Made by a program: the position numbers and the translations under genes. The notes under the pieces were generated by a model that was not told the origin of the DNA, made no database searches, and was given only the letters and a program-made list of their open reading frames with translations. From Chloroflexota bacterium (GTDB taxonomy: Bacteria > Chloroflexota > Limnocylindria > Limnocylindrales > CSP1-4), in contig JACDBP010000319.1 of assembly GCA_013694835.1 (NCBI GenBank), positions 1 through 44,274 on the forward strand: a DNA stretch of 44,274 nt, written 5' to 3'. Shown in pieces: positions 6,142 to 23,828 of this stretch. Numbering within the stretch: the first letter of the stretch is position 1; each line of letters begins with the position of its first letter.

Positions 6142-8422
6142 CGCCGGTCCGGCGCAGCACGTCAACCCCGGTCGAGTGGTCGGTGCGCCGGAACCGCAGG
6201 TCGAGCACGGCCTGGCCTACCCGCAGGTTGCGCAGCTCCAGCTGGGGAAGCCAGTCCGGCAGTGACGGCGCGAGGAGGGTCAGCTGGCCGGCATCGGCAT
6301 CGGGCTGGAGCCCCAGCATCGATCCCATCAACTGGAACATGCAGCCGGCCGACCACGCCTGGGGCGAGCAGGCGACAGGATACGGCACCGGGAATGGCGA
6401 GGTCGCCCGGTCGAATCCGCAGAACAGCTCCGGCAAGCGGGCGTCGCGGAAGTACCGGGTGGCCTGGAGCATCGTGGCCGCGACATGGGCGGCTTCCTCT
6501 CGAAAGCCGTACCGCGCCAGGCCGCTCGCCGCGATCCCGTTGTCATGTGGCCAGATCGTGCCGATGTGGTAGCCGATCGGGTTGTAGCCGCCCATCTCGC
6601 TCGAGAGCGTGCGGATGCCCCAGCCGCTCCACATGCCCGGCCCCATCAGCGAAGCCACCACGCGCCTGGCACGCTCTGGCGACGCGATGCCACACCAGAG
6701 GACGTGCCCCGCATTCGAGCCGATGGCGTCCACCTGGTGTTTCTGCCCATCCAGCGCCAACGCGTAGGTGCCGACATCCTCCATCCAGAACTCAGCCTCG
6801 AACCGCTCGCGCAGCCGGGCAGCCGCCTGCTCCTGGTCCATCGCCAGCACCTCGTCGCCGCGCCGTCGGGCGAGACGCGCCATGCCCAGCCGCGCCGCAT
6901 AGACGTAGGCCTGGACCTCCACCAGCGCAAGGGGCGCCGGGACCGTCGTGCCGTCCCGGCGCCGGCTCGACTCGGGCGAGTCCTTCCAGCCCTGGTTGAC
7001 CAGACCTCGCGGTGATCGCCGTCGATACTCCACGAAGCCGTCGCCGTCCTCGTCGCCGTCGCCGTCGATCCAGGCGAGCGCGGCGAGTGCGTTCGGCCAG
7101 AGGCGGTCGACGAGCGCATCGTCCCCCGTCCAGCGGGCGTACTCGTCGAGGAGCATGAGCCACAATGGCGTGGCGTCCACCGAGCCGTAGTACGGCGTGT
7201 GCGGGATGTCGCCGGCCAGCGCGAGCTCGCCCGTTCGGAGCTCGTGGAGGATCTTGCCAGGTTGGGCATCGCGCCAATCGTCGGTGTCCGTCGCCTGCAG
7301 GCGGGCAAGCAGAGCCAGGGTCTCGGCGGCGACCTGCGGCCGGACGCAGAGCAGTTGGAGGGCCGTGATCAGTGCATCACGCCCGAAGAGCGTGGAGAAC
7401 CAGGGCACCCCGGCCGCGATGTACCGCTCGCCCTCGCCGGGTCCTGGGTTGCGCAGGAGCCGCAGGTCGGCCAGTGCGCGCTGGAGTGCCTGGTCCGCGA
7501 ACGGGTCGAAGGTCTCCAGGATCGCGGTGCTCGACTTCCAGGCGCGGTGGACGGCCATCGGTTCATCTTCCCGGACCATCGGCACCGGCCCCTCAAGGAG
7601 CTTCGCGACCGCCGCCCCCTCTGTAGCGGCGCCGCTCTCCGACCACACCGTGACCTGGAGCGTTCGACGCGCGCCGGGCGCCACGATCCAGTCGAGTGCC
7701 GCTTGGATCGCGCCGTACTCGCTGTCGGACGCCTCGATGATCATCGACTCGGAGAAAGCGATGTGCGTGGATCGGACCTGATCGTCCAGGCCGCGGTAGG
7801 AGAGCACCACGCGCGCGCCGTCGCCGCCGATCGCGTTCGGCAGGCGGTCGCCGCGTTCGTCGCGGACCAGGCCCCGTACCTCGAAGATGTCGGCGTAGTC
7901 GGCGTCCATGGCGAGTTGCAGCGAGCACTGTTGCGGATGCGTCGTGTAGTTGTCCACGTGGATCCGCTCGCGGAACCCGCCGGAAAGCAGCCGCTCCCGG
8001 ACGAGACCCAGGGACTGGCGGCCAAGTACCTCCGGAGGACCGGGCTGGCCGTCGGCACGGATATCGCGCACCACATCGGGGTTCGTGAGCTGGATCGTTC
8101 CGGTGTAGCTCGCCCCGCCCCCGGTCCGCAGCACGACGGGCCTTGCGTGGTTCAGCCGCAGCTCGTGGCGCGACAGGATCCGTGTGTCGCCGTCGTAGAG
8201 CCCGAGACCCCGCGTATCGGGATGCACGTCGCCCCACGCGTCGGTCAGCTGGAAGAGAGATTCGTGCTTGAGGACGAGGACGCCCGTCAGGTCGGTCGCC
8301 CGGACGACCGCGGCATCGCCCGACAGCGGCTTGGGCAGGGGCATCCCCGAGATCGGGTCCCGCTCGAGGGGTGCGAGCGCCTGGGCGCGGTTGCTTCGCG
8401 GTATCCCGTCCGACTCGGTCAT
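6116..8422 (-). CDS. Amylo-alpha-1,6-glucosidase / bacterial glycogen-debranching-enzyme family protein
   Basis: A 768-aa ORF. The N-terminus ([18 protein letters not shown]...[14 protein letters not shown]) and central region ([49 protein letters not shown]) are typical of the GDE_N/GDE_C-type (alpha/alpha)6 glucosidases. The ATG at 8422 overlaps the prfA stop as ATGA. Confidence 0.8.
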
Positions 8423-11253: not shown

Positions 11254-11961
11254 CTACTCGTCCTTCTTCGTGGTCCGGCGCTTCTTGGCGCCCTCCTCGG
11301 GCGCCGGTGGTGCCTGGGTGCGGGACGCCGGCGCGCGCGGGGTCGCCTTGGTCGACGGGCTCGACTTGCTCGTCTTGCTCGTCGATGCGGTCGACTTGCT
11401 CGTCGATGCGGTCGACTTGGCCCGGCCTTTGGACCTCGTCCCGGATCTTGCGGTGTCAACGGCTCCTGTCCCGGTCGCAGCCGTCGCGGCGCCGGCGTCG
11501 GTACCGGACTCGGAGTCGGCCTCCGCAGCCAGCTTCGCAGCGAGGTCCTTGTCCGCGGCGGCGCGCTTGGCGGCTTCGCGGTCAGCCTCTGCAGCGGCGC
11601 GTCGCTCCGCGTCTTTCGTTGCCTGGGCGTCGGCTGCCGCGCTGCGGCCCCCCCAGGAGATGTCGGCGATCCGCAGGATGGTCAGGTCCTGACGGTGGCC
11701 CTGCTTGACGCGGCGCCGCGTCTTGGGCCCGTACTTGAAGACGACGATCTTCTCGCCGCGGTCCAGGCGTACGACGTCCGCGGCAACGACAGCACCGGCG
11801 ACGAGCGGCCGGCCGATCTCGAGCTCCTCGCCGTCCGCGATGAGCAGGACGCGGTCCAGCTGCACGGTCTGACCCGGATCCGCGTCCATGCGATCGACCT
11901 CGAGCTGGGTGCCCAGCTCGACGCGGTACTGCTTGCCGGCCGTTTCGATGACTGCGTACAT
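11254..11961 (-). CDS. rplU: 50S ribosomal protein L21 with a C-terminal low-complexity extension of about 130 aa
   Basis: Starts at the internal ATG (11961) with AGGGGA upstream. The product begins [17 protein letters not shown] and contains [28 protein letters not shown]. The L21 core is followed by an Ala/Lys/Ser/Thr-rich tail running to the stop at 11254. Confidence 0.9.
11378..11419. repeat. Perfect 21-bp x2 tandem repeat inside the rplU tail
   Basis: The unit ctcgtcgatgcggtcgacttg occurs at 11378-11398 and again at 11399-11419. It encodes the [14 protein letters not shown] duplication, and a degenerate third copy lies just upstream on the plus strand. Confidence 0.9.
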
Positions 11962-12063
11962 GGTCCCCTGGCGGTGCAGACGCGCGAAAGCGCACGGGTG
12001 ATGGATCTGACTGGAGTCGTGCGCGCGCTGACCACAGTGGTCGGGCCGCAGCACGAACGGGGA

Positions 12064-12091
12064 TGGTACCCGTTCCGGAGTCGAACCGCAA
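12064..12091 (-). other. tRNA-like T-arm / 3'-acceptor fragment (not an intact tRNA)
   Basis: The minus strand reads TTGCGG-TTCGACT-CCGGAA-CGGGTACCA. That is a canonical T-loop heptamer flanked by a 5-6 bp stem (one G.G mismatch) and ending in CCA. I found no matching 5' acceptor strand, D-arm or anticodon arm upstream. Confidence 0.3.
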
Positions 12092-12392
12092 CGAGCGCGG
12101 TGGCAGTCGGACGTTCAGGCCGAGCCGCTGGAGTGGTGCCATCAGCCGGGCGGACCAGGCCGCGCCGTTGGATCGTGCGGAATCTGCGCTTGGTGACTGG
12201 TACGAGCGTTCAGTCGCTGGCCCGGCCTACCGCGGTGCCCGAGATAGCAGGGGCCGGCTGCTTGCGGCCTTTCAGCTCAGCTCATCACCGCGTCGACCTG
12301 CGTTTCAGCCATCAGCTGCTGGAAGCGCACGATCCGGGTCAGGGCTCGTTCGATGCGCTGCTGCCGTCGGAGGGTCAAAGCCGTGCCACGCG

Positions 12393-13223
12393 TCAGTCGA
12401 GTGATGGCGCGACGCGTAACAGCGTGAGGTATCGCTTGACGATGCTACCGCCATACCTGGTGGCGATGAGATCGGTGATGCACGCGAAGAGGCCCCGCTG
12501 AGCCTCGGCGGCCAGTGCCCTGTGGCCCGAGTAGCTGAGCAGCAGTTCGACGTACTCAGCAGCCGTGTAACTAAGATCCCACTCGAAACGGCGCACCGAA
12601 ACAGGGCCGAATCGAGCACTCCGTTCGATCTCCTCGATCTCGGTCGCGATAGCGGCGGCGGCTGCGGGCGGGTGCAGCTCGGGGGTCCACGTGGGGTCCC
12701 AGCTCTCGTAGCACGCCTGGACGTCGTCGAAGAAGTCGGCGCTCCCACCGGCCACGTGGTGGGTGCCCAGGATGGCCAGCGATCCGCCCGGCCGAAGAGC
12801 GTCAGCCGCCTTCCCGACCCTGGTCCGCGGGTCGAGCCAATGGAAGGCGGTGGCCGAGACCACGGCATCGAACGGTTGCTCGGAGATGGACCACTCCTCG
12901 AAGTCATCGACCTCGATCGTCGCTTTCGGGAAGCCGCGAAGGTTCCGACGGGCCACCTTCGCCAGGTTCGGACCGATCTCGAGGCCGACGATCCGACAGT
13001 CGAGTTCGGCCAGGGAAACGGTGAGCTGCGCCGTACCCACGCCGATCTCCAGCACCCGAGAGCCAGGGCCGATGTGGGCCAGACGCACCAGCTCCGCGAT
13101 GGCGCTCCCCGGATAGCGGGGGCGGACCCGGTCGTAAAGCTCCGCCGCTTCGTCAAACGTCGCGCGCAGACGGTGCCGCTCGATCGCTTCAGGGCCGTCG
13201 GCAGTCACAGCGCTCTGATCCAC
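12393..13223 (-). CDS. Class I SAM-dependent methyltransferase
   Basis: A 276-aa ORF starting at GTG. It has motif I VLEIGVGTAQLT, the post-I acidic residue in IVGLEIG, and FDAVVSATAFHWL...LRPGGSLAI, typical of the Methyltransf_11/25 type. Confidence 0.85.
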   Translation of the reverse strand: MDQSAVTADGPEAIERHRLRATFDEAAELYDRVRPRYPGSAIAELVRLAHIGPGSRVLEIGVGTAQLTVSLAELDCRIVGLEIGPNLAKVARRNLRGFPKATIEVDDFEEWSISEQPFDAVVSATAFHWLDPRTRVGKAADALRPGGSLAILGTHHVAGGSADFFDDVQACYESWDPTWTPELHPPAAAAAIATEIEEIERSARFGPVSVRRFEWDLSYTAAEYVELLLSYSGHRALAAEAQRGLFACITDLIATRYGGSIVKRYLTLLRVAPSLD

Positions 13224-13403: not shown

Positions 13404-13976
13404 TCAGTCTTCGCGCAGCTCCCAATGGAAGCGCTCCGAGCGCTCCGCCGCCGACTCGAGCTGGCTGTAGGACCCGCCGTGATAGAGAAGCGGCGGCGAA
13501 TCGCGCGGGTTGAGCCAGACTCCGTGGATGAGGCCGAGGAACAGGGAATGCGAGTACACCTCGTACGACGTCTGCACTTCGCACTCGAGGTGCGCGAGGG
13601 CCTCGGACAGCCTGGGCGTGGCGTCGCTGGGCAGTCCCGTGGCCATCCAATCCTCGCGCAGGCGTTTGTCCGATCCGGGCCGGCTGCAGTAGAGCGCTAC
13701 GTTTCGTTGCCCCACCGACAGGAGGTTGACGCCGTACCTTCCCCGAGCGGTGATCTCCGCGTGGGCGCGCGACGTACGGTTGATGGCCACCAGGAGCGAT
13801 GGGGGCGAGGCCGACAACGAGCACATCGACGTCGCGGTCATGCCGCATGCTCGACCACCACCGTCGAAATACGTCACGATCACGACCGTCGTCGCGTGCC
13901 GCCTGAACGCTTGACGGAAGAGCTGGACCTCGCTCGCGGGATCCATCTCGTTTGGGTCGTCTGAGGCTTCGGGCAT
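13404..13976 (-). CDS. Flavin reductase (HpaC/Flavin_Reduct family)
   Basis: Contains FRQAFRRHATTVVIVTY...GMTATSMCSLSASPPSLLVAI and LECEV...GDHSLF-like (SHSLFLG) motifs. I preferred ATG 13976 (190 aa) over the track GTG 14036, because it leaves an 88-nt divergent promoter region with the HpaB-like gene. Confidence 0.8.
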   Translation of the reverse strand: MPEASDDPNEMDPASEVQLFRQAFRRHATTVVIVTYFDGGGRACGMTATSMCSLSASPPSLLVAINRTSRAHAEITARGRYGVNLLSVGQRNVALYCSRPGSDKRLREDWMATGLPSDATPRLSEALAHLECEVQTSYEVYSHSLFLGLIHGVWLNPRDSPPLLYHGGSYSQLESAAERSERFHWELRED

Positions 13977-14064
13977 GTCATCCGTGGGATTCGCGCGATC
14001 CAGGCCTCGGTCGGTGGTCGCGCCCGCATTGTGCACCCTGCTCGATCGTTATTGAGGCTTCAGC

Positions 14065-15492
14065 ATGCGGCGAGGCGCTGACTACATCGCAGGCATCCGG
14101 CGCGATGGCCGGACGATCCTCCTGGACGGTGAGCCCATCGACGATGTCACCACCCATCCAGGGTTCGCAGGCCCGACCCGGGTCGTAGCGTCGCTCTACG
14201 ACGACGCGATCGGCGACGCCGAGATCGCGTACGAGGACGAGGGCCGCTCCCACAGCGCGATGTGGCTTCCGCCCAGATCCGCCGAGGATCTTGAGCGGCG
14301 ACGGATGGTCCACCGTCATTGGGCGGAGGGTTGCTTCGGCCTGATGGGGCGCACGCCAGACCACGTCGCCTCCATCATCACCGCCTTCGCTGCACGGCGG
14401 GACGTCTTCGACCGTGCGGGCACTCGCTACGGCGACAATGTCGTGTCGTTCTATCGGCAGGCGCGGGACAACGACTGGTTCGTGTCCTACGCAGTCACGC
14501 CGCCACAGGTGGATCGATCGAAGCCGGCCCACCTTCAGCCCGAACCGTTCCTGTATCCGGGCGTCGCCGAAGAGCGAGACGATGGCATCGTCATCCGCGG
14601 CGCGCAGATGATCGCCACCTCGGCCGCGATCTCCGACTACCTGTTCCTGAGCTATATCGCGCCGCTGCAGCCGGGCGACGAGGACTACGCGATCTCGGTC
14701 GTCATGCCGCTGAGCGCCGAGGGCCTCCGTCTGTACCCGCGGCGTCCGTACGCCACCATCGCGACGAGCACGTTCGACTACCCCCTCTCGGCACGCTTCG
14801 ATGAATCGGACAACCTCGTCGTGTTGCGCGATGTCTTCGTGCCGTGGGAACACGTTTTCGTCCACCGCGACATCGGGCTCGTCAATCGGCAGTTCCATGA
14901 GACGGGCGCCCATGTCCTCGCCAACTACCAGGCCCTCATCCGATTCCTCGTCAAGCTCGAGTTCGTTTCGGGCCTGGCCATCGAGCTCGCTGATGCGCAT
15001 GGCCTCTCGGCGATCCCTCCGGTCCAGGCCCAGTTGGGCGGCGATATCGCCGCCTTCTGCTCAGCGCTCGAGGCGATCGTGCTCGCGGCCCAGGCCCGTC
15101 CCCAGACACGGAACGGTCTTGTCCTTCCGGCACCTTCCTTCGTCAGCGCAGGTGTCAGCCTTCAACGGCGATGGGTCGTCGACCTCATGCGCGCTCTGCG
15201 CGAGCTCGGTGGCGGGGGGTTCATCGCGATGCCATCAGCAGACAGCTACGAGGCCGCAGAGACCGCTGAAGACGTCGAGCGCTATTACCGCTCGGCCACG
15301 CTCTCGTCGCGCGACCGGGTGCAGTTGCTCAAGCTCATGTGGGACCTGGTCGGAACGGAGTTCGCGGGGCGGCAATTGCAGTACGAGATGTTCTACTCGG
15401 CTGCCCAGCACATCGCCGACCTGCAAGTCTTCAAGTCCTTCGACTGGGAGAAGGGGCGCGTGCACGTCCGTCGATCGATGCGGCCGACCTGA
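14065..15492 (+). CDS. 4-hydroxyphenylacetate 3-monooxygenase family oxygenase component (HpaB-type, two-component FADH2-dependent)
   Basis: A 475-aa ORF. The N-terminus GADYIAGIRRDGRTILLDGEPIDDVTTHPGFAGPTRVVASLYD is the typical HpaB-family start. GAGG lies 7 nt upstream of the ATG, and the gene is divergent from a flavin reductase. Confidence 0.88.
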   Translation: MRRGADYIAGIRRDGRTILLDGEPIDDVTTHPGFAGPTRVVASLYDDAIGDAEIAYEDEGRSHSAMWLPPRSAEDLERRRMVHRHWAEGCFGLMGRTPDHVASIITAFAARRDVFDRAGTRYGDNVVSFYRQARDNDWFVSYAVTPPQVDRSKPAHLQPEPFLYPGVAEERDDGIVIRGAQMIATSAAISDYLFLSYIAPLQPGDEDYAISVVMPLSAEGLRLYPRRPYATIATSTFDYPLSARFDESDNLVVLRDVFVPWEHVFVHRDIGLVNRQFHETGAHVLANYQALIRFLVKLEFVSGLAIELADAHGLSAIPPVQAQLGGDIAAFCSALEAIVLAAQARPQTRNGLVLPAPSFVSAGVSLQRRWVVDLMRALRELGGGGFIAMPSADSYEAAETAEDVERYYRSATLSSRDRVQLLKLMWDLVGTEFAGRQLQYEMFYSAAQHIADLQVFKSFDWEKGRVHVRRSMRPT

Positions 15493-15522: not shown

Positions 15523-17301
15523 TCATTCGATAAGGGCGGACAGTTCCCGGTCGATGAGGTCGTGGACGGCGTTCTGGGCCGCGATCGGCCGGACGGTGTG
15601 ATCGCGTGCGGGCAGGTCCTCCATCACCACGTTCGGCCAGCGGTCGATCCGGGCGATGATCCCATCGCGCTCGAGCTCATGCCGAACGGCCTCGTCGCCG
15701 GAGAAGGCGACGACGACCCTCGTCCGCGAGTCGCGGAGCTGGTCGAGGGTGCGCTCGAGCTTGACGGTCTGTGGGTCTGCCCGGCGCCGATGACGCAGGC
15801 GACCGGGGATCCGAAGCAGCCCCCGCCAGGGCTGGAGCGCCATCGCTCGTCCGATCCTCAGCAGGCGTGCAGCCTTGACCTCCCCGCGCAGGATCCGCCG
15901 CCACGAGTACGGTTGCATCGCACGCCTCGCCAGGCGTGCATCACGGTGCGCTTCGAGCGCGGGATCCCACACCAGCGCTCTAGGGTTGAGGAGCACGGCC
16001 GCGACCACGCGGTCGTCCGCGGCTGCCGTGTTGAACGCCCAGTACGCGCCCGAACACAAGCCGATCAGGACGAAGCGTTGCCCGACCCCGCGTGACTCGA
16101 GCGCATCGATGATCGCTGTCACCTGCTCGCCCAGGTCTGGTGTGTAGAACCGGCCGACGTCGACGTAAACGCCAGCGTCACCGTCAGCGTCCCCGATGCC
16201 CACGAAGTCGACCCGAAGTGTGGGCACGCGTCGGGCCGCCCATCGTCGCCCCGCTTCGACCCACATCCGGTTCGGCCCGATGCGTCGTATGGCACCGGCG
16301 TTCAGGAAGATCGCGCACAGGTCGGCCCGTGGCTCGGACCACGGCTCGGCCAGGAGCCCAACGGATCCTTCGAGGGTCCCGTCGTGGCCGATGGGTGTCT
16401 CGCGGATGCGCGATCCATCAACCAGGAAGTCGCCATGGTCACCTGTGGGCGGACCAGCAGGCTTGCGTGGTGGAGCCGATGGCGAGAGGGCGGCGGGCGC
16501 GGCCTCGAGCCATGCGTTGACCCGGCCGAACACCTCGAGCGGTGGCTGATAGTGCTCCACGTTGAAGCACATCGCCCCCCAGCCCGTACCAGACCCGACG
16601 GTCACCGCGACCCCGCCACGCTCGAGCGCCGTATGGAGGCGTCCGTCGGTCGGGATGCCATCACGCGCCATGAGCATGGCCCGTTGCAGCCCTCCGAATC
16701 CTGCCTCGCCGACCTCGATCCGCTCGATCGCCGAGATCGTCTCCGCGGAGAGAACGAAGCCGCCGACCTCGAGCCATCCGTCGGGGAGAGTCGTGTCCGC
16801 AGTGCCAGTCGCGCCGTATCCCGAACTCTGGAACTTCGCGAACGCCCGCTGCTCGCGCAGAAAGGACCGTCCGCGGGCCGGTGACGCCCACAGCACGAGA
16901 TCATCGATCGGCGCGCCATCGGCGAGCGCAAGGCTGGCGATGAGGCCCCCGAGGCCGAGCCCGATCACGGCTACCCGCGCGCCCGTTGTGTCGCGTAACC
17001 AAGTCGTGGCGGCAACGATCGCCTCCGTCCATGCCCCCAGCCGAGCCGGATCGCTCGGCGAACCGGCGCTGTCGCCGGCGCCGGGCAAGTCGATCCGCAG
17101 CGAGGGGTGGCCGGTGTCGGCCAGGTGCTCCGCCCATGCTCGCCGACTGCGATACGTCGTCACCTCATCCCACCCCCACGGCGGACAGATGAGGACGGCC
17201 GTTCCGGGTGGCATGCTCGGAGACGCCCCGTGGAAGATCCCGAACAGGGGACCGGACTCGATGTTGAGGTACATCGGGCGGGCCGACGGTACGTCGATCA
17301 A
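15523..17301 (-). CDS. Tandem alpha/beta-hydrolase-fold protein (two hydrolase-like domains in one chain)
   Basis: A 592-aa ORF. Domain 1 has the elbow VAVIGLGLGGLIA, with Gly at the nucleophile position. Domain 2 has the elbow FVLIGLCSGAYWA, with Cys at the nucleophile position, followed by AFSGDEA and PARDHTV (candidate Asp and His). TTG 17301 overlaps the upstream stop as TTGA; the alternative start is ATG 17274 (MYLNIESGPLFGIFH). Confidence 0.7.
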   Translation of the reverse strand: MIDVPSARPMYLNIESGPLFGIFHGASPSMPPGTAVLICPPWGWDEVTTYRSRRAWAEHLADTGHPSLRIDLPGAGDSAGSPSDPARLGAWTEAIVAATTWLRDTTGARVAVIGLGLGGLIASLALADGAPIDDLVLWASPARGRSFLREQRAFAKFQSSGYGATGTADTTLPDGWLEVGGFVLSAETISAIERIEVGEAGFGGLQRAMLMARDGIPTDGRLHTALERGGVAVTVGSGTGWGAMCFNVEHYQPPLEVFGRVNAWLEAAPAALSPSAPPRKPAGPPTGDHGDFLVDGSRIRETPIGHDGTLEGSVGLLAEPWSEPRADLCAIFLNAGAIRRIGPNRMWVEAGRRWAARRVPTLRVDFVGIGDADGDAGVYVDVGRFYTPDLGEQVTAIIDALESRGVGQRFVLIGLCSGAYWAFNTAAADDRVVAAVLLNPRALVWDPALEAHRDARLARRAMQPYSWRRILRGEVKAARLLRIGRAMALQPWRGLLRIPGRLRHRRRADPQTVKLERTLDQLRDSRTRVVVAFSGDEAVRHELERDGIIARIDRWPNVVMEDLPARDHTVRPIAAQNAVHDLIDRELSALIE

Positions 17302-19889
17302 GGCGGCCCGCCCACGACCTCGATCGGGATCTGACCGATGAGGTTGAGCGCCGTCAGGGTCCCGCCACCGAATCGGCGCCCGTCGTCGAGAGGGTGCAGC
17401 GAGATCAGCCGCGTGCCGCCCGGCTCGACCGAGAACGCATCATCCCCGGCGGAGAAGCCGTCCACGTGGATCCGGACGCCATAGGCAAGCCGGCGGCTCC
17501 GGACCGTCAGCCGGACCGTCCCGTCCGCGGCCGACTGGGCGCTCGCCTCGAGTGCCAGGCGGTCGGGCCTCTCGACGTCGACCGGTCGACCGGCCGGGAA
17601 GCGGACTGCCTGCGAAAGCAGCTCGCGCCCGGTCTGCCCGTCTTGCTCGAGGCTCACCACGAGCACATCATGGGCGGGTGGCCCGAACCGATAGGCCCAC
17701 GACACGTCGACGAAGTGCCCGAGCAGCGTCTCGACATTCCGCACGTGTGCGCCGTGCGCGGCAACGTCGATCGTTTCCTGGCCTTCCCCGACCGGCTGCT
17801 CCAGGTCGCGATAGAGCGCCACCCGCAGGCGAGCCACGAGCGGCGTCGAGTGATCGTTCGCCACATGGACGACGACGCCGCCGAGGCCCTCATCGGTCGT
17901 CCAGACCGCTACCGGCGCGAGGGCACGGCGAAGATGGTGATAGGCGACCTTGGGCATCCCACGGTGGTCGAGGACGCCCCAACCCGCGCCCGCAGCGAGA
18001 TCGCGGAGCCACAGGACGAGCGCACCATGACACGTCGAGTCGGTCCGACGCCATTCCCCGAAGACCTCGGCCATGACCTCGCCGCTGACTGCCCGGGAGA
18101 ACTCGAGGTACCGTTCGTGGTCGATCCTGCGAAGCTCGCCCGGGTCCTGCCCGAACAGGTCGGCCAGATAGTGGTCGCGAACATCGTCGAAGTCCCAGCC
18201 GCTGCCGACGTCGCGCGGGACGCCCGCTTTCCAGCGGGGATGGTGGACAACGACCCCTGCCGCGGAATCCGGCAGTAGCGATTCGACGACCGCTTCGTCG
18301 GGTACGTTCGCGAACGCCAGGCACTCGGCGGCGAACCGGACCCCGGAGCTCCGCGCGTCGGCCAGCGGACGCCGATAGCCACCGACCCCGTAATAGTTCG
18401 CGACGCCCCGGTCCGGCCGGAACGGCTGGTCGCCTCCGAACGGCGCAGACGGCGCATAGACCGCGTCCGCCCCGGACGCACGCGACAGTGCTGGGATCGT
18501 CACGCCGAAGAAGTCGGCGCGTCCGAATGTGGGGTCGAGCCCGAGCATCGCGATCTGCTGCTCGATCTCGCTGTTGCCGCACAGCACGGCGAAGCTGGGG
18601 CGGCCGGCGAGCCGGTCGATGACGTCGGTCGCTTCAGCCTCGGCGAGCGCCCGGAACGCGTCATCCGCGAATGGGTAGTCCATGTTCGCGAACATGAGAT
18701 CCTGCCAGACAAGCACACCGAGCTCGTCGCACAGATCGTAGAAGGCGTCCTGCTCATAGGCGCCTGTGCCAGGCAAGCGGAGCATGTTCATCCCACCGTC
18801 ACGGGCGGTCTCGACCGCCGCACGAAGCGATCCTGGCGAGGGAGCGAGGCCGCGTGGGTCGACCGGAGTCCAGACCGCCCCCCGCGCGAAGATCCGCACG
18901 TCGTTCAGGTGGAGGTCGAGCCCATCGCGCTCGAGGTCGTGACCGGCCCCGGGACCCGCTGCCAGTCGTCGAAAGCCGACCCGCCCGGCGTCGATCGCGA
19001 TCGGCCCTACGTCGGTCTCGACCTTGAATCTAACGTCGTACAGGGCAGGCTCGCCGTGGGTGTGAGGCCACCACCGTCGTGCCGCTGGCACCCGCACCTC
19101 TCCCCGGAAGAGCAGTCGTTGTTCGTCGCCGGACGTGTCCAGGTATGCATGATGGGATCCCGTCTCCCCGGTCAGGACGACCCCGACCTGACGGGTCCGG
19201 CGGGCACCGATGGTCCGCACGCCAAGGCGCACCGACAGCACACCTTCGTCGCCGTCGAGTCGCGGCCGAAGGTCGATGCGCTCGACGGTGATGCCTCGCC
19301 GGCGCTCGAGCCAGACGGGCCCCCACGGGCCGACCGCAGGCGGCCCGGGCGCGAACCCTGGCGCGCGGCCGAGGAGCGTCGTTCTGATCCAGCGCAGATT
19401 GCCGTCGGCGACGAGGCGCGTCCGCCATCTGGCCCGCGGGCGGCGCGGTGCGCTCAACCTGGGTCCGAGGGCACTAAACCGGATCGCAAGCTCGTTCGCG
19501 CCGCGCAGGCGGCCGCCGATCTCGATCGCGTGGCGGACGAACATCGAATCGCTGACCACCACCTGTTCCCCATTCAGGTATACCTCGGCGATGGTCGCAA
19601 GGCCGTCGAGGAAGAGCACGACCGACTCGTCATCGTCGCCACGGGCCGCCTGGAAGTTCGTCCGGAACCACCAGTCCTGGGCGTCGAGATCAGCTGCCAT
19701 CAGACCGGCCTCGGCGAGCACCGAGGCGACCGTGCCGGGCACTCGTGCCGGAAGCCAGGTCAACCCATCGAGCTCAGCGGGGTCGGCGAACGAGTCCGGC
19801 GCAGCGGATGCGGCTACCCAACCTTCATCGAGCGGCACGACATCGTGATCCTGGACGCGGACCCGCCGTGCCAACCGTGCCGGCGGCAT
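17298..19889 (-). CDS. Glycoside hydrolase family 2-like protein (beta-mannosidase / exo-glucosaminidase type), cytoplasmic
   Basis: An 863-aa ORF. It has the sugar-binding N-domain pattern (WLPARVPGTV...DWWFRT...FLDGLATIAEVYLNG). The TIM-barrel region contains MNMLRLPGTG...VLVWQDLMF, CGNSEIE (acid/base Glu, compare GNNE) and RFAAECLAFANVP (candidate nucleophile Glu). There is no signal peptide. Confidence 0.78.
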   Translation of the reverse strand: MPPARLARRVRVQDHDVVPLDEGWVAASAAPDSFADPAELDGLTWLPARVPGTVASVLAEAGLMAADLDAQDWWFRTNFQAARGDDDESVVLFLDGLATIAEVYLNGEQVVVSDSMFVRHAIEIGGRLRGANELAIRFSALGPRLSAPRRPRARWRTRLVADGNLRWIRTTLLGRAPGFAPGPPAVGPWGPVWLERRRGITVERIDLRPRLDGDEGVLSVRLGVRTIGARRTRQVGVVLTGETGSHHAYLDTSGDEQRLLFRGEVRVPAARRWWPHTHGEPALYDVRFKVETDVGPIAIDAGRVGFRRLAAGPGAGHDLERDGLDLHLNDVRIFARGAVWTPVDPRGLAPSPGSLRAAVETARDGGMNMLRLPGTGAYEQDAFYDLCDELGVLVWQDLMFANMDYPFADDAFRALAEAEATDVIDRLAGRPSFAVLCGNSEIEQQIAMLGLDPTFGRADFFGVTIPALSRASGADAVYAPSAPFGGDQPFRPDRGVANYYGVGGYRRPLADARSSGVRFAAECLAFANVPDEAVVESLLPDSAAGVVVHHPRWKAGVPRDVGSGWDFDDVRDHYLADLFGQDPGELRRIDHERYLEFSRAVSGEVMAEVFGEWRRTDSTCHGALVLWLRDLAAGAGWGVLDHRGMPKVAYHHLRRALAPVAVWTTDEGLGGVVVHVANDHSTPLVARLRVALYRDLEQPVGEGQETIDVAAHGAHVRNVETLLGHFVDVSWAYRFGPPAHDVLVVSLEQDGQTGRELLSQAVRFPAGRPVDVERPDRLALEASAQSAADGTVRLTVRSRRLAYGVRIHVDGFSAGDDAFSVEPGGTRLISLHPLDDGRRFGGGTLTALNLIGQIPIEVVGGPP

Positions 19890-19893
19890 GGGG

Positions 19894-20859
19894 CTACCGG
19901 ACTGCGTCGTCGAGCGCGCCGAGTGCCACGTCCCACGCTTCGCTCAACGCGTCGATCGCGGCCTCGGCGTCGAATGGCCGCCGCCGAGCGAGCTTGAAGC
20001 CAAGTAGCTTGGACCCCTCGACGATCTCCGACATGGCCGTCACCGCCCGCCCGCCCTCATCGCCGAGCAGCCAGCCGACGTGCGAGGCGCACAGTTCGAA
20101 CCCGGCTCCCGCCATCCGCACGGTCGCGAATGCGTAGGCATGGAATCGAGCCACATCGCCGGCCAGCAGGTCCGGGAGGTCACGGCTCAGTCGAACGCCG
20201 AACCGGTCGAACGGATTGCCGGCATGGACCCGATCGAGGTGATGGCGCAGGATCTCGCGGGACGCTGCCCGCAGCGCGGCCCCTTCGAGGCGCGGGCCGG
20301 CATCGAAGCGGATGAGCTCCGTGTATGGGGGAAGGATCTCGTCGTCCGCGTGGTCGACCCGAAACACGCCGCGGTAGTCTTCCCCGCTCAGCTCGTGCAG
20401 TGACGTGTTGTGGAAGTAGCGGAGGCGTTGCCCGAGCAGGTCGATCGCCTCGGCGGCGACGCCGGTCTTCACGTGCTCCGTGCGATAGCTGCTCGAGGCC
20501 GTATCCGGAAGGTGCCAGGCGTCGAGCTCCACGGTGAGCGAGCGGCCATCGGCGAGAAGCTCAGCGATCTGGTCAGGCATGGACCGGTAGGGCTGCATCT
20601 CGTGGATATCGACACCGAAGAGGCGCTCGAGGTCCTCGGGGGGTGGCTTGAAGAACGTCCACTGGTCCCCTTCGAAGTCCATTCGAACGATCGAGCCGAG
20701 GCACGCCAACGGTTCGTCGCCCCGAGCGTGGAGGAGCTCGATAAGCAGGTCCGTGTAGCAGTTCGTCTCCTGGTACGTGCGTTCGGCGGCATGCAGTGGG
20801 TGCGATCGATACGTGGCCGGATCGAGCCCGAACAGGCTGACCATGCCGGACGTAGCCAT
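19894..20859 (-). CDS. Conserved hypothetical protein (I recall it as DUF1839-like; family assignment unverified)
   Basis: Corresponds to the C-terminal 321 aa of the 650-aa track ORF 19894..21846. It starts at ATG 20859 (MATSGMVSLFGLDP...), 2 nt after the ligase stop; an alternative GTG at 20865 overlaps that stop as GTGA. The upstream part of the track ORF is an alternate frame of the ligase gene. It contains YQETNCYTDLLIELLHARG near the N-terminus. Confidence 0.55.
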   Translation of the reverse strand: MATSGMVSLFGLDPATYRSHPLHAAERTYQETNCYTDLLIELLHARGDEPLACLGSIVRMDFEGDQWTFFKPPPEDLERLFGVDIHEMQPYRSMPDQIAELLADGRSLTVELDAWHLPDTASSSYRTEHVKTGVAAEAIDLLGQRLRYFHNTSLHELSGEDYRGVFRVDHADDEILPPYTELIRFDAGPRLEGAALRAASREILRHHLDRVHAGNPFDRFGVRLSRDLPDLLAGDVARFHAYAFATVRMAGAGFELCASHVGWLLGDEGGRAVTAMSEIVEGSKLLGFKLARRRPFDAEAAIDALSEAWDVALGALDDAVR

Positions 20860-20861
20860 CG

Positions 20862-21791
20862 TCACGGCCACAGCTGCCGGGTGACCGCGGCCGGCCATCG
20901 AGTGTGGTCGAGGCCGTGGCTCCGCAGGAGGCCGAGCGTGATCCGCTCGAGGCCGAACCCGAGACAGGCGGTGTGGGCTGGGCTGCCGTCGGCCATCGTG
21001 ATCCCGTACGTCCCGGCGAAGTGATCCTGGTGGTAGTTGAACGAGGCGACCGCCGTCGGCTCCGGACCGGCGATGGGGATGAGCAGTTCGAACTTGAGTT
21101 CCTGGGCTCGCTGGTTGGCAGCCAGCATCCGGCCAGCGCGGCCGAAGAACGGGTCGGCGGCCACCTCGGGGTGGGCATCCAGCCCCACACGTGTCAGGAC
21201 CTCTTCCGCTCGATCGCGCCAGCTGTTCCGCCAGAGGGCGACGGTCTCGGGCTCGCCCAGGCGGACCATCTCGCGCTGATGGAACATCTGGAGGCGCGCC
21301 GGATCGGCCGATGGTTCGTGGCGGAAGACGTAGGCGCCGCCGGCGTCGATGGCCAGGCCACCGGGCGGCAGCGGGCCGCGCCGGGCGATGGCCGGATAGA
21401 CCGGGTAGCAGGCGGCCGGCACCAGGACGAGGTCTGTCATCCGCTGGTACCCGCTCCAGTCTCCGTGACGGTGGGCGACGTCCTCTTGCTCGATGGCCTC
21501 CTGCTCGGTCCCCTCGAACGAGAAGATCGTGCCGGCCAGGTGGGGGAAGGACTTGAGGTAGCCGCTCGCCTCGAAGTGGCGACGCGGCAGGACCGGCGGA
21601 AAGCGCATCGCCTCGGCACCATCGGGTTCGGCCACCCGGCTGACGAGGCGGTCGAATGCCTCCCGGATCCGCTCGAAGCCGCCGCCACGGCCGTACACGC
21701 CAGGCTCCCCGGTCTCGATCAGCAACCCATGATCGAGGAGCTCCACGAGGAATTCGGCCTGGTCGGGAGTGGCCGCCAGGAGCCCGGCCAT
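20862..21791 (-). CDS. Amino acid--[acyl-carrier-protein] ligase (class II aaRS / atypical SerRS catalytic-core homolog without a tRNA-binding domain)
   Basis: A 309-aa ORF with class II motif 2 GGAYVFRHEPS...RLQMFHQREMV and motif 3 LGFGLERITLGLL. The Cys residues in PAACYPVYP and HTACLGFG match the Zn site of methanogen-type SerRS and aa:CP ligases. It is too short for any tRNA-binding arm, and a carrier-protein gene lies two genes upstream. Confidence 0.82.
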   Translation of the reverse strand: MAGLLAATPDQAEFLVELLDHGLLIETGEPGVYGRGGGFERIREAFDRLVSRVAEPDGAEAMRFPPVLPRRHFEASGYLKSFPHLAGTIFSFEGTEQEAIEQEDVAHRHGDWSGYQRMTDLVLVPAACYPVYPAIARRGPLPPGGLAIDAGGAYVFRHEPSADPARLQMFHQREMVRLGEPETVALWRNSWRDRAEEVLTRVGLDAHPEVAADPFFGRAGRMLAANQRAQELKFELLIPIAGPEPTAVASFNYHQDHFAGTYGITMADGSPAHTACLGFGLERITLGLLRSHGLDHTRWPAAVTRQLWP

Positions 21792-22966
21792 CAGACGTCC
21801 TTGGCGATGAGCAGCAGGAGTGCGTTCCGCTCGTGGATCCGCTCATTGGCGATCATCAGCGGAGCCGACATCGTATCCCGCAGGTGGCGCCCGACGCTGA
21901 ACGGCGTGTCGTTCTTGTAGCCCACGATGCCACCGATCGCCATGGCGCCCTGGCAGACCCGCGGTGCCTGTTCGGAGGCCGCGATCTTCAGGTTGTTGAA
22001 GCGGAGGATGCTGGCCATCGTGGATAAACGCTCTCGGTCCGGGGTGGCCGACGCTTCGGTGAAGTCTCGCAGGGCCGAGTTCACCTCTGCCCGCAGCAGC
22101 GACAACTCGCTCATGAGATGCGACAGGCGCTGCGCTGTCGGCGGGACCTGGTCGGGACGCTGCTTGGCGGAGGCCCGTACGAACGCGCGAGCCCGGTCGA
22201 ACGCGTCGGTGGCGATCCCCAGCCACAGATGCGACCACAGGAGATGGCTTACCGGTACCATCGATTCGCCCGCGACGATCGGGAAGGGCGTCGGCAGGAC
22301 CTGGTCCGTCGAGAACTCGGCCCGAACGACGAAGCCGGGCGAGGACGTCCCTCGCATGCCCAGCGGATCCCAGGTGCCGGTCTGTTCGAGCGTCATCTGG
22401 TCCTTGTGGGTCAGCACGATGACCTGGTCGCCGGGCTCGGCGTCGGGTGTGCGCCGCAGCGTCGTGAAGAGATCGTCGGCATAGAGACCGTACGACACCG
22501 TCGGCGCCTGCTTCTCGAACGTGGCGTTGCCGTCCCGGGACGGCGTGACCGCCGCGTTCGAGCGCCCGAGGTCCCCACCCGTCCCTACCTCGGACGTGAC
22601 GGAGGCGATGAGCCGCTGGTCACGGGCGACGTCGCGCAGGTATGCCTCGAACCACGGCGCATCGGCCAGGTGCCGGGTCATGCACGCGATCTGGATCTGG
22701 TGCATCGCGTAGACCATGGCGCTCGATCCGCACCGGCGACCGAGTTCGAAGCACGCCGCCGCCACCGCCTCGAACGAGATGCCGCCCCCGCCCAATTCCG
22801 TCGGGATGAGCGCCGACAAGGCCCCGTCCGCACGCAGCGCATCGAGTGCCTCGACCGGAAAACGGGCCTTCCGGTCGACGTCGTCGGCGTTCACTGCGGC
22901 GAACTCATCGGCGATCTTTCGGATCCCGTTCAGGAAGCCCGCGTCGACGTCGATCGCGACGCTCAT
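21791..22966 (-). CDS. Acyl-CoA dehydrogenase-fold flavoprotein
   Basis: A 391-aa ORF with FPVEALDALRADGALSALIPTELGGGG, ASVTSEVGTGGDLG and the C-terminal helical domain ...GGIVGYKNDTPFSVGRHLRD. The ATG at 22966 overlaps the carrier-protein stop as ATGA, and its own stop overlaps the ligase ATG (TGATG). Confidence 0.88.
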   Translation of the reverse strand: MSVAIDVDAGFLNGIRKIADEFAAVNADDVDRKARFPVEALDALRADGALSALIPTELGGGGISFEAVAAACFELGRRCGSSAMVYAMHQIQIACMTRHLADAPWFEAYLRDVARDQRLIASVTSEVGTGGDLGRSNAAVTPSRDGNATFEKQAPTVSYGLYADDLFTTLRRTPDAEPGDQVIVLTHKDQMTLEQTGTWDPLGMRGTSSPGFVVRAEFSTDQVLPTPFPIVAGESMVPVSHLLWSHLWLGIATDAFDRARAFVRASAKQRPDQVPPTAQRLSHLMSELSLLRAEVNSALRDFTEASATPDRERLSTMASILRFNNLKIAASEQAPRVCQGAMAIGGIVGYKNDTPFSVGRHLRDTMSAPLMIANERIHERNALLLLIAKDV

Positions 22967-23208
22967 GCCGCCGACACCTGGAGCCTCTCGAGCGCGTCGG
23001 TGATCGAGGCGACGCTCTGAAAGACACTCCGCTTCAGCATGGCGTCGGGAAACTCGATGTCGAACTCAGCCTCCAGGGCGAGCATGAGGTTGACGCTCGC
23101 ATGCGAGGTCATGCCAGCCTGATAGAGGTCGGCGTGATCTTCCAACGCCTGGATGTCGGTCGGCAGCCGGCCGTGTTGAAGGATGATGTGCCGGACTCGT
23201 TCACCCAT
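22963..23208 (-). CDS. Acyl/aminoacyl carrier protein (81 aa)
   Basis: The sequence DLYQAGMTSHASVNLMLALEAEFDIEFPD is a carrier-protein helix II region. Starting at ATG 23208 puts the candidate phosphopantetheine Ser at residue 35, as in canonical ACPs. The longer starts at 23244 or 23328 would add an N-terminal leader. Confidence 0.78.
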   Translation of the reverse strand: MGERVRHIILQHGRLPTDIQALEDHADLYQAGMTSHASVNLMLALEAEFDIEFPDAMLKRSVFQSVASITDALERLQVSAA

Positions 23209-23280
23209 GCCTGACTCGGGATCCACCCTTAAGACGACCTCCATAGGCGCGACGGACGCTGCGAAGGATACGACAGCGAC

Positions 23281-23296
23281 GACTCGTTGCCGAGTC
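23281..23296. promoter_or_regulatory. Perfect palindrome GACTCG-ttgc-CGAGTC in the divergent ACP-operon / acpS control region
   Basis: A 6-bp inverted repeat with a 4-nt spacer lies 73-88 nt upstream of the carrier-protein ATG. It could be an operator or a 5'-leader hairpin with a GCAA tetraloop on the minus-strand transcript. Confidence 0.3.
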
Positions 23297-23414
23297 TCCG
23301 GCGGCTCGAGCTTGCACGCACGCACCACGCCGTTCGGAGAGCCCTGTGCCGCTCAAGGCCGGTGGGACGTGTGGGCGGCTTGACAGGCCCGTGACGACGC
23401 CCAACGATCGGCTC

Positions 23415-23828
23415 ATGGTCATCCACGTGGGGCTCGATCTCGTGTCCGTCGCCGAGGTCGCGGATGCACTCGTCGCTCTCCACGGCCACCGGTACCTGAC
23501 CCGGGTCTACACCGAGCGCGAGATCGCGGACTGCCGGACGTCCGCCGGTGTCGACCCAAGAAGGCTGGCGGCCCGGTTCGCGGCAAAGGAGGCGACCCTG
23601 AAGGCCCTGGGCACGGCTGACGATGCGGTCTCCCTGCGCGATATCGAAGTCCAGCGGGAACCGTCTGGACGGGTCCGCTTGGTGCTGCGCGGGGGGGCGG
23701 CTGAACTGGCTGCCGAGGCCGGAGTCGTCGAGCTGGCACTGAGCCTCACCCATGAGGGCGGATACGCCGCGGCGATCGTCGTCGCAGAATACGGGCGGAC
23801 CGCCACCGACGGCGCGGTCCAGCCATGA
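23415..23828 (+). CDS. acpS: Holo-[acyl-carrier-protein] synthase (AcpS-type 4'-phosphopantetheinyl transferase)
   Basis: Starts at the internal ATG (23415) of track ORF 23346..23828. The product contains MVIHVGLDLVSVAEV..., FAAKEATLKALG and LSLTHEGGYAAAIVVAE, the typical AcpS pattern. TTGACA at 23380-23385 lies 29 nt upstream. Confidence 0.85.
   Translation: MVIHVGLDLVSVAEVADALVALHGHRYLTRVYTEREIADCRTSAGVDPRRLAARFAAKEATLKALGTADDAVSLRDIEVQREPSGRVRLVLRGGAAELAAEAGVVELALSLTHEGGYAAAIVVAEYGRTATDGAVQP

Follow-up and report, generated by a model that had tools for sequence, protein, structure and literature searches.

The biological role of amino acid:[carrier protein] ligases (aa:CP ligases), aminoacyl-tRNA synthetase (aaRS) relatives such as Atu2573 of Agrobacterium tumefaciens or Bll0957 and Bll6282 of Bradyrhizobium, has been in question since 2010. 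Aravind, de Souza and Iyer, in a note that they appended to a 2010 paper at the proof stage (PMC2922099), named as neighbours of this seryl-tRNA synthetase (SerRS) paralogue an acyl carrier protein (ACP), a redox enzyme, a conserved but uncharacterised open reading frame (ORF), Atu2574, a glycosidase and lipopolysaccharide biosynthesis genes, and predicted that Atu2574 joins the amino acid to an amino group of a cell-surface sugar and that the redox enzyme modifies the aminoacyl group (PMC2922099). A consistent neighbourhood comprising a glycoside hydrolase family 2 (GH2) protein, DUF1839, the ligase, an acyl-CoA dehydrogenase (ACAD) and an ACP is given in the supporting information of Ozhelvaci and Steczkiewicz (2023; PMC10318531), and a 2022 review describes for the aa:CP ligases only the carrier-protein aminoacylation reaction (PMC9437257). 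Our literature search retrieved no experimentally determined product of Bll0957/Atu2573-type systems and no function for DUF1839. Here, we analysed a cassette of this type found in a stretch of 44,274 nucleotides (contig JACDBP010000319.1 of assembly GCA_013694835.1, Chloroflexota bacterium; referred to below as the window), which consists of six minus-strand genes and a divergent gene encoding the phosphopantetheinyl transferase AcpS (Table 1). The original prediction, made from the window alone, considered this system to be undescribed, and in this respect it must be corrected: both the five-gene neighbourhood and the idea of sugar aminoacylation have been published previously. As far as the searchable literature shows, the new elements are the match of DUF1839 with the CcbD/CtaG enzymes, the sixth gene with its combination of one dead and one Cys-type domain, the Ser-Glu motif of GH2, the missing catalytic base of the ACAD-fold protein, the operonic AcpS and a minimal variant of the cassette. 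This analysis therefore sharpens a testable hypothesis on the role of the aa:CP ligases and does not solve the question.

The window has the same ligase and carrier protein (CP) families as Atu2571-Atu2574 and as Bll0957 and Bll6282 (structures 3mey and 4h2s-4h2y), and shares with these clusters the gene order CP-ACAD-ligase-DUF1839-GH2. It differs from them by the addition of a sixth gene, encoding a fused tandem alpha/beta-hydrolase, and of a linked AcpS, and by its Chloroflexi/Thermoleophilia-type lineage. The sixth gene, also present in Azospirillum and Methylobacterium, is not mentioned in either of the two earlier descriptions (PMC2922099, PMC10318531). We propose, at roughly even chances, that the cassette is a cytoplasmic CP-templated aminoacyl-transfer pathway in which the acyl group, after oxidation, would be handed to a sugar-type acceptor.

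Conservation was assessed by scanning one genome per species, which gave 581 loci with a ligase relative; the best 80 of these 581 were analysed by mapping the window proteins onto them with tblastn, and the counts out of 63 given below refer to the loci with enough flanking sequence. The best 80 loci belong mostly to Solirubrobacterales and other Thermoleophilia, with a few from Chloroflexia and Limnocylindria. All six genes (CP, ACAD, ligase, DUF1839, GH2 and hydrolase) occur together in 49/63 loci, which bears out the conserved association of GH2 and the double hydrolase with the ligase, and the six genes plus AcpS are all co-directional in 40/63. DUF1839 stands beside the ligase in nearly every locus. 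The joint occurrence of the six and seven genes is far beyond chance. AcpS adjoins the CP gene in 52/63 loci, so that the proposal of a dedicated AcpS, 206 nt from the CP gene, is reasonable; its divergent orientation is real in the window and is a local peculiarity rather than a trait of the system, as AcpS is divergent in only three loci, the nearest relatives of the window, and is mostly co-directional, being the first gene of the same operon in most relatives.

Beyond these lineages, 108 plasmid or chromid records carry a ligase homologue. The same six genes are contiguous in Azospirillum lipoferum 4B and Methylobacterium bullatum, the first five are found in Rhizobium leguminosarum and Burkholderia gladioli, and in Cupriavidus metallidurans CH34 the order is five genes, a Crp-type regulator, a second DUF1839 paralogue, ManC, a Wzc kinase and the tandem hydrolase; the window proteins are 36-56 % identical to their proteobacterial counterparts. 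The cassette is thus widespread in soil and plant-associated bacteria (Rhizobium, Azospirillum, Burkholderia, Cupriavidus, Thermoleophilia), and because of this distribution its product may be a common surface or signalling modification. The second CH34 paralogue (megaplasmid NC_007974.2, record 20000-42000, locus L086) is divergent, lies at 11432-12457 of that locus and is 40 % identical to the window protein, versus 30 % for the copy within the cassette. Two further branches have other partners. On the Priestia megaterium plasmid NZ_CP085444.1 (L083, 7139-15686), acpS, ACP, ACAD and aa:CP ligase genes are found without DUF1839 or GH2 and are followed by genes for a DMT transporter, an ATP-grasp enzyme, a single alpha/beta-hydrolase, the alanine permease AlaP and an alanine racemase, which hints that alanine, maybe D-alanine, is the substrate in this branch. 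On a plasmid of Streptomyces sp. NBC_00984 (L085, 6353-11222), a distant ligase (32 % identity) lies inside a polyketide synthase/nonribosomal peptide synthetase (PKS/NRPS) cluster, in the order 3-hydroxyacyl-CoA dehydrogenase, PP-binding protein, ACAD, ligase and acyltransferase, a layout which resembles the zwittermicin-type aminomalonyl/hydroxymalonyl-ACP cassette with an aaRS homologue as the loader. Two full copies of the cassette (L001 and L002) were observed on different contigs of a single metagenome-assembled genome (MAG), uncultured Chloroflexia MFD05442.bin.1.77, the hydrolase being inverted in L001. The contig analysed here is labelled Chloroflexi, and most of its closest cassette homologues are in MAGs of Solirubrobacterales or other Thermoleophilia (Actinomycetota), which points either to lateral transfer of the cassette or to inconsistent binning or taxonomy of soil MAGs.

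Judged by their sequences, the ligase and the CP are orthologous to the characterised aa:CP ligase/CP pairs. The ligase exceeds the cut-off of the equivalog model NF005479 (409.9 versus 357 bits) and aligns end to end with Bradyrhizobium Bll0957 (3mey/4h2w; E ~1e-82; residues 5-304 versus chain residues 26-327), whereas methanogen-type SerRS matches it only over the C-terminal catalytic part of SerRS. Because of this whole-length alignment and of the confinement of the SerRS match to the catalytic part, the 309-residue protein has no tRNA-binding domain, in agreement with its first description as a bare class II aaRS core of the Bll0957/Atu2573 type. Residues Cys128, Glu174 and Cys276 align with their Bll0957 counterparts and are invariant among 21 homologues; the Cys/Glu/Cys set of the amino-acid site is reported to provide the zinc ligands (Mocibob et al. 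2010). The CP, whose gene lies two genes upstream of the ligase gene, scores 107 bits with NF005480 (cut-off 72) and has a probable phosphopantetheine attachment site at Ser35 in a GMTS motif. Its best solved relative is Atu2571 of A. tumefaciens (2jq4/4h2w_C; 68 bits, versus 30 bits for the Bradyrhizobium CP), which is reported in the same work to be the cognate partner of the Ala-activating Atu2573. AcpS satisfies both TIGR00516 (70.9 bits, cut-off 59.8) and TIGR00556 (78.6 bits, cut-off 45.35).

The deposited Bll0957 sequences differ from each other in one helix, GRAGKMLANNQRDQQLK in 4h2w_A and GRVGQMKAVSQKQQQLK in 3mey_A. The corresponding helix of the window ligase, GRAGRMLAANQRAQELK, agrees with the 4h2w version, which was crystallised with an Atu2571-type CP. 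From this comparison the variable helix is probably a CP-recognition element, a reading that fits with the CP of the window being of the Atu2571 type.

The evidence points to the DUF1839 protein, rather than the hydrolase pair, as the primary transacylase; the original prediction had given the transfer to the hydrolases and no role to DUF1839. An AlphaFold2 (AF2) model built on 30 homologues (predicted local distance difference test score 89.8, predicted template modelling score 0.89) consists of a papain-like domain and a helical bundle, with strands at residues 79-179 and long helices at 188-315. Compared with the Protein Data Bank (PDB) by Foldseek, this model gave 19 matches with E < 1e-3, corresponding only to AziU3/U2, CtaG and CcbD, all full length with TM 0.57-0.64 and probability 1.0 and including CcbD complexed with the peptidyl carrier protein (PCP) domain of CcbZ; ordinary cysteine proteases are present in the list only at E > 0.01. 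Cys29 (TNCY motif) and His145 (YxHN motif) are invariant from Chloroflexi to Proteobacteria, Cys29 begins the first long helix (29-40), and the spacing from Cys to His is 116 residues versus 117 in CtaG. Both CcbD and CtaG are papain-like, CP-dependent transacylases that form amides. CcbD takes up a CP-tethered proline as a Cys thioester and acylates with it an amino sugar at its amino group (PMC12945683). CtaG, a ligase that depends on a PCP, has the triad Cys11-His128-Asp144, and BtrH (ACP:aminoglycoside acyltransferase), AsbE and MllDE have been recognised as related to it (PMC12865890); DUF1839 is not listed among the CtaG homologues in that work. DUF6005, which we identify as AsbE from the asb-cluster context, has been placed as a remote homologue of DUF1839 (PMC10318531). 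In our Pfam search of the DUF1839 protein only PF08893 was found, BtrH_N and DUF6005 not being matched. On the basis of the model, DUF1839 is predicted to be an aminoacyl-S-CP:acceptor transacylase, and structure and context together support a Cys-dependent transfer to an amine, most plausibly carried by a sugar.

The comparison with these enzymes also delimits the proposal. The model matches CcbD over its full length and the reaction proposed is alike, but in the CcbD/LmbD systems, which use the carrier domain of CcbZ/LmbN (7yn1, 7yn2, 9dkr), the triad is Cys-His-Glu, no sequence similarity to DUF1839 is detectable, and the loader is an NRPS adenylation domain instead of an aaRS-like enzyme; moreover, no amino-octose pathway is present here. 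The CtaG, BtrH and AsbE systems share with the cassette their reliance on a stand-alone carrier protein, but their identity with DUF1839 is 12-13 % and, instead of Gly or Ala, aromatic or gamma-glutamyl acyl groups serve as their donors and acceptors. The logic of butirosin biosynthesis is similar, with a carrier protein, a loader, a flavoenzyme acting on the tethered group, transfer to an aminoglycoside amine by BtrH and a final hydrolytic step. Comparable in another way are the D-alanylation system DltA/DltC and the lipid A glycylation system AlmE/AlmF/AlmG, in which, as proposed here, a small amino acid passes via a dedicated CP to a cell-envelope glycopolymer; they differ by the use of an ANL-type adenylating loader and of membrane transferases, and contain no flavoprotein, GH2 or papain-like enzyme.

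A search of 1.84 billion representative proteins gave 989 DUF1839 clusters at E <= 1e-3 and 368 at 1e-30. At least six of the best 150 (P0474, P0453, P0478, P0495, P0368 and P0452) are continuous ligase-DUF1839 ORFs, which could be natural fusions giving Rosetta-stone support for a direct hand-over, or could be artefacts of overlapping stop and start codons, most of them being on fragmentary metagenome contigs.

The sugar-type acceptor, preferred from the start over peptide assembly, is now better supported, by the CcbD-like DUF1839, by the linkage of DUF1839 with GH2 and by the genomic surroundings. DUF1839 and GH2 are both present in 55/63 loci and both absent in 5/63, which means that they are almost always gained or lost together. 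Several cassette loci lie within exopolysaccharide (EPS) gene regions: at least one GT1/GT4 glycosyltransferase, CpsB or polysaccharide-deacetylase gene is found within 10 kb in 27/80 loci, the cassette of B. gladioli is adjoined by genes for an undecaprenyl-phosphate glucose phosphotransferase and ManC, and the beta-proteobacterial flanks include ManC, Wzc and undecaprenyl-phosphate glucose phosphotransferase. A precursor of a cell-surface polysaccharide or, alternatively, a small glycoside of the cytoplasm is the likely target; the cassette itself does not encode the acceptor. When the flanks of the 80 loci were searched for additional acceptor-pathway or exporter genes, no family beyond the seven genes was found in more than 18/80.

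The same data bear on a different kind of product, namely a small diffusible metabolite (N-acylated polyamine, peptide-like or siderophore-like). In this case the acceptor of DUF1839 would be an amine other than that of a sugar, GH2 would take off or swap a glycosyl group serving for protection or as a pro-drug element, and release of the product would fall to the hydrolase. CtaG and AsbE, which belong to the same structural class, do use non-sugar amines (PMC12865890), and the cassette is self-contained and mobile, being carried by plasmids or chromids of many genera with variable flanks; in addition, distant ligase homologues reside inside PKS/NRPS clusters, and the Priestia core is coupled with the ATP-grasp enzyme, DMT transporter, alanine permease and racemase noted above. 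We nevertheless regard this alternative as unlikely, because an exporter, a regulator and an enzyme for a second building block are all missing from the cassette, because the GH2 paired with DUF1839 in 55/63 loci is catalytically intact and because EPS-type neighbours recur.

The GH2 protein itself is probably a working glycosidase, as both catalytic Glu residues are kept. Its matches with PF22666 and PF00703 correspond to a sugar-binding and an Ig-like domain at the N-terminus, after which comes a TIM barrel, and its closest PDB relatives are beta-mannosidases (5n6u, 2je8; E ~1e-41 over residues 17-718). Both catalytic Glu align with the CGNNEI and RFMSEFGF motifs of the BtMan2A-type chain 2vqu, which correspond to the motifs around Glu462 and Glu555. 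In 61-62/63 homologues the motifs C-G-x-S-E and F-A-x-E are conserved, and the acid/base motif is Ser-Glu, not the Asn-Glu ("NE") of clan GH-A, in 62/63. These features would also suit a catabolic or salvage cassette, in which GH2 and the hydrolase would degrade an imported aminoacylated or acylated beta-glycoside and the ligase, CP and flavoprotein would process the amino acid set free. The intact Cys-His pair of the hydrolase and the ArgE/DapE-type deacylase and amidohydrolase that adjoin the Azospirillum cassette speak for such a function. We consider it highly improbable, since the use of ATP to load a dedicated CP with a phosphopantetheinyl transferase of its own is characteristic of biosynthesis, since genes for a sugar transporter, a sugar kinase or a regulator responding to sugars are not conserved with the cassette, and since the enzymes nearest to DUF1839 in structure are ligases of biosynthetic pathways.

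The flavoprotein has the ACAD fold, with an N-terminal ACAD domain and weak matches to the C-terminal ACAD domains, PF00441 and PF08028 being slightly below their cut-offs. Its closest PDB relatives are monooxygenases and N-oxygenases of the ACAD fold (5gj7 and DszC, together with KijD3, ORF36 and DnmZ, which are nitrososynthases; 43-53 bits), ahead of short-chain acyl-CoA dehydrogenase (SCAD, ~41 bits). At the position of the catalytic Glu of medium-chain acyl-CoA dehydrogenase (MCAD), 5/5 cassette homologues have an Ile, within the segment L-M-I-x-N-(D/E)-R-I; the register of the MCAD Glu376 motif (I-Y-E-G-T) is assumed here from the MCAD and SCAD sequences. As aligned, the protein is without the MCAD-type catalytic Glu and hence would not be a classical dehydrogenase, although a catalytic base placed elsewhere, as in isovaleryl-CoA dehydrogenase, is possible. 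Since the classical Glu is missing, oxidation at the amine or C-alpha, or oxygenation, is as likely as alpha,beta-desaturation.

This flavoprotein is 40-47 % identical across phyla, and CP, ACAD and ligase form the most constant trio, associated with other partners in Priestia and, in a distant form, in the Streptomyces PKS/NRPS cluster. The trio might thus supply enzymes encoded elsewhere with an oxidised building block bound to the CP (2-oxoacyl, dehydroaminoacyl or aminomalonyl in type), DUF1839, GH2 and hydrolase then being accessory or editing functions. Such a division of labour seems improbable to us: a minimal variant of the cassette keeps the hydrolase and not the flavoprotein, no ketosynthase or condensation partner is conserved nearby, and the nearly constant position of DUF1839 beside the ligase, together with the continuous ligase-DUF1839 ORFs, favours direct off-loading within the cassette, as in the transfer pathway that we propose.

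The sixth protein does not correspond to the "acyltransferase-type hydrolase pair" initially assigned to it. In its N-terminal half, the nucleophile elbow reads G-L-G-L-G-G (G-F-R-L-G-S in Azospirillum), with no Ser or Cys at the nucleophile position in 18 homologues, and in its C-terminal half G414-L415-C416-x-G418, E542 and D567-H568 are invariant in the same number of homologues, Azospirillum included. The Gly or Arg at the first nucleophile position and the invariant Cys-His of the second half therefore indicate one dead domain and one Cys-type domain, the former folding in the AF2 model as an alpha/beta domain. The best NCBIfam matches are hydr2_PEP (TIGR03101; 79 bits, cut-off 202.75) for the N-terminal half and hydr1_PEP (TIGR03100; 77.6 bits, cut-off 168.45) for the C-terminal half, in which a dienelactone hydrolase (DLH) match covers the elbow. 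These are the families of the hydrolases associated with the exosortase A (PEP-CTERM/EpsH1) system, whose genes are obligately paired and, in EPS loci, are accompanied by genes for an acyl-CoA ligase and an ACP. The best family of each half is the same, but the two halves are fused here and their scores fall far short of the cut-offs. Among the annotated ORFs of the window no gene for an exosortase or a PEP-CTERM protein was found, a search of the plasmids for hydr1/hydr2 exosortase-type genes gave only seven weak, unannotated matches, and our literature search linking exosortase hydrolases with ACP retrieved nothing.

In six loci (L003, L017, L024, L027, L065 and L080) the cassette is reduced to CP, ligase and hydrolase, usually with AcpS, and is without ACAD, DUF1839 and GH2. 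Because this minimal variant exists, the hydrolase can serve the CP and ligase in the absence of the three other proteins. Taken with the converse, five-gene form of Proteobacteria, it follows that the hydrolase and DUF1839 may represent alternative or successive off-loading routes.

The proposed pathway can be described in six steps. (i) AcpS would convert the 81-residue CP into its holo form, as suggested by its family and conserved linkage. (ii) The ligase would adenylate a small amino acid, Gly or Ala by analogy, and thioesterify it to the phosphopantetheine arm, CP aminoacylation having been shown for homologues. (iii) The flavoprotein would oxidise the CP-tethered aminoacyl group. (iv) Cys29 of DUF1839 would take over the acyl group and, by a ping-pong transfer, hand it on to an acceptor containing a sugar, at an amine (or hydroxyl) of this acceptor and with formation of an amide, as suggested by structural similarity and context. 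(v) GH2, with its Ser-Glu acid/base motif, might bind or process the glycoside part of the acceptor or product, which is the weakest step. (vi) The hydrolase might be a second off-loader of the CP thioester, as a transacylase or thioesterase. What the flavoprotein does chemically, what GH2 and the Cys-type hydrolase contribute and what the acceptor is are inferred. A more specific version of this pathway, a self-contained machinery for a type of decoration not seen so far, in which a Gly- or Ala-derived oxidised acyl group (glyoxylyl, pyruvoyl, dehydroalanyl or N-hydroxy-aminoacyl) is installed on a glycan or glycoside by two successive Cys transacylases, DUF1839 and the hydrolase, with the Ser-Glu motif of GH2 adapted to a C2-substituted sugar, is put forward tentatively, as a possibility that we ourselves rather doubt. 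If it were true, it would reveal the long-sought biological role of the aa:CP ligases and DUF1839, with ~1,000 clusters at 50 % identity, would form a large new branch within the class of the CcbD/CtaG ligases. The residues singled out for mutation are Cys29 of DUF1839, Cys416 of the hydrolase and Glu441 and Glu522 of GH2; for such work, the window gives no better route to an answer than the cultivable proteobacteria that have the same genes.

Several observations count against a CP-templated transfer to a sugar as set out above. The identity between DUF1839 and CcbD/CtaG is 12-18 % with TM ~0.6, which makes the link a structural one only, and a DUF1839 profile search of the PDB sequences gave no match of the CcbD/CtaG class (only a spurious kalirin hit, E = 0.45). 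The 2023 survey counted DUF1839 among the papain-like proteins and proposed for it, from a model, a Cys-(Thr/Ser)-His site that departs from the canonical one (PMC10318531), and one of the structural matches, AziU3/U2, is a functionally unrelated aziridine-forming enzyme and not a transacylase (PMC12865890). As CtaG and AsbE acylate non-sugar amines, the fold does not dictate a sugar acceptor. The hydrolase matches its exosortase-associated families only below their cut-offs, and fold searches gave generic feruloyl esterases, lipases and dehalogenases only, each over one half. Neither a gene of amino-sugar biosynthesis nor one for a glycosyltransferase or an exporter is part of the cassette, its flanks vary widely between loci, and those of the window are of housekeeping type (atpB, glyA, prfA, prmC, rplU, rodA, the PBP2 gene, parAB, gyrBA and prs). 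Finally, GH2 enzymes are hydrolases, and we know of no precedent for a GH2 role in an acylation pathway.

The coordinates of the cassette are collected in Table 1. As the G+C content of the window is 66-72 % and long spurious ORFs are common there, genes were picked out from the ORF list by a filter on third-codon-position G+C (GC3) and by family searches.

Table 1. Features of the aa:CP ligase cassette and its AcpS gene (positions within the window)
Feature	Position	Strand	Remarks
AcpS-type phosphopantetheinyl transferase (holo-ACP synthase)	23415..23828	+	divergent from operon; PF01648 E = 2.6e-14
CP-AcpS divergent intergenic region, 206 nt	23209..23414	.	read from sequence; presumed promoters
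Aminoacyl carrier protein (CP), 81 aa	22963..23208	-	PP-binding E = 1.3e-6; NF005480
ACAD-fold flavoprotein, 391 aa	21791..22966	-	Acyl-CoA_dh_N (PF02771) E = 4e-12
Amino acid:[carrier protein] ligase, 309 aa	20862..21791	-	NF005479 equivalog
DUF1839 protein, 321 aa	19894..20859	-	PF08893 E = 5.5e-92
GH2 protein, 863 aa	17298..19889	-	Glyco_hydro_2_N2 E = 1.2e-19; Glyco_hydro_2 E = 2.2e-6
Tandem alpha/beta-hydrolase, 592 aa, TTG start	15523..17301	-	two alpha/beta-hydrolase halves
Tandem hydrolase N-terminal domain, hydr2_PEP-like	16492..17301	-	TIGR03101 below cut-off; without nucleophile
Tandem hydrolase C-terminal domain, hydr1_PEP/DLH-like	15523..16404	-	TIGR03100 below cut-off; Cys nucleophile

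Reading of the sequence confirmed six minus-strand ORFs running from 23208 to 15523, each in frame and with a single terminal stop, and the junctions announced by the original prediction, which are in operon order ATGA, TGATG, a 2-nt gap, a 4-nt gap and TTGA; all of its gene identifications were likewise recovered by Pfam and NCBIfam searches. The ligase and DUF1839 are already named in the GenBank annotation of the source contig. The NCBI calls on this contig are shorter for DUF1839 (316 aa, starting 5 codons later) and for the hydrolase (583 aa, 9 codons later), and would turn the 2-nt gap into 17 nt and the TTGA overlap into a 23-nt gap; the longer starts are favoured because homologues keep residues upstream of the NCBI starts. 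A 650-aa ATG ORF (19894-21846, minus strand), whose upstream half overlaps the ligase in another frame, was rejected as a shadow ORF of high-GC DNA. An antisense ORF within GH2 (17394-18278, plus strand) recurs in 37 related loci simply through the conservation of the GH2 gene. No signal peptide or membrane segment was predicted in any of the six operon proteins, and all cassette proteins are predicted to be soluble.

The 206-nt region between the CP and AcpS genes is presumed to act as a promoter region. It contains no riboswitch (a glycine riboswitch, for example) or other RNA element according to an Rfam search, a scan for sigma-70-like promoters around and inside the operon gave no match, and a scan for intrinsic terminators in the operon and its surroundings gave only opposite-strand sites, at chance level.

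Among the other genes of the window, AcpS is followed by an AI-2E-family transporter gene, which, like the RodA and PBP2 genes, is found in none of the 80 related loci. At 6116-8422 (minus strand), about 7 kb from the operon, lies a gene for a large cytoplasmic glycoside hydrolase of the glycogen-debranching/mannosylglycerate-hydrolase (MGH1-like) type, for which no link to the cassette was seen. Directly downstream of the operon are genes for an HpaB-type flavin-dependent monooxygenase (14065-15492, plus strand) and a flavin reductase (13404-14036, minus strand), a pair whose occurrence beside the cassette is confined to the three closest relatives (L039, L045 and L052; 66-77 % identity). If the ACAD-fold protein is a two-component oxygenase, this flavin reductase could serve it.

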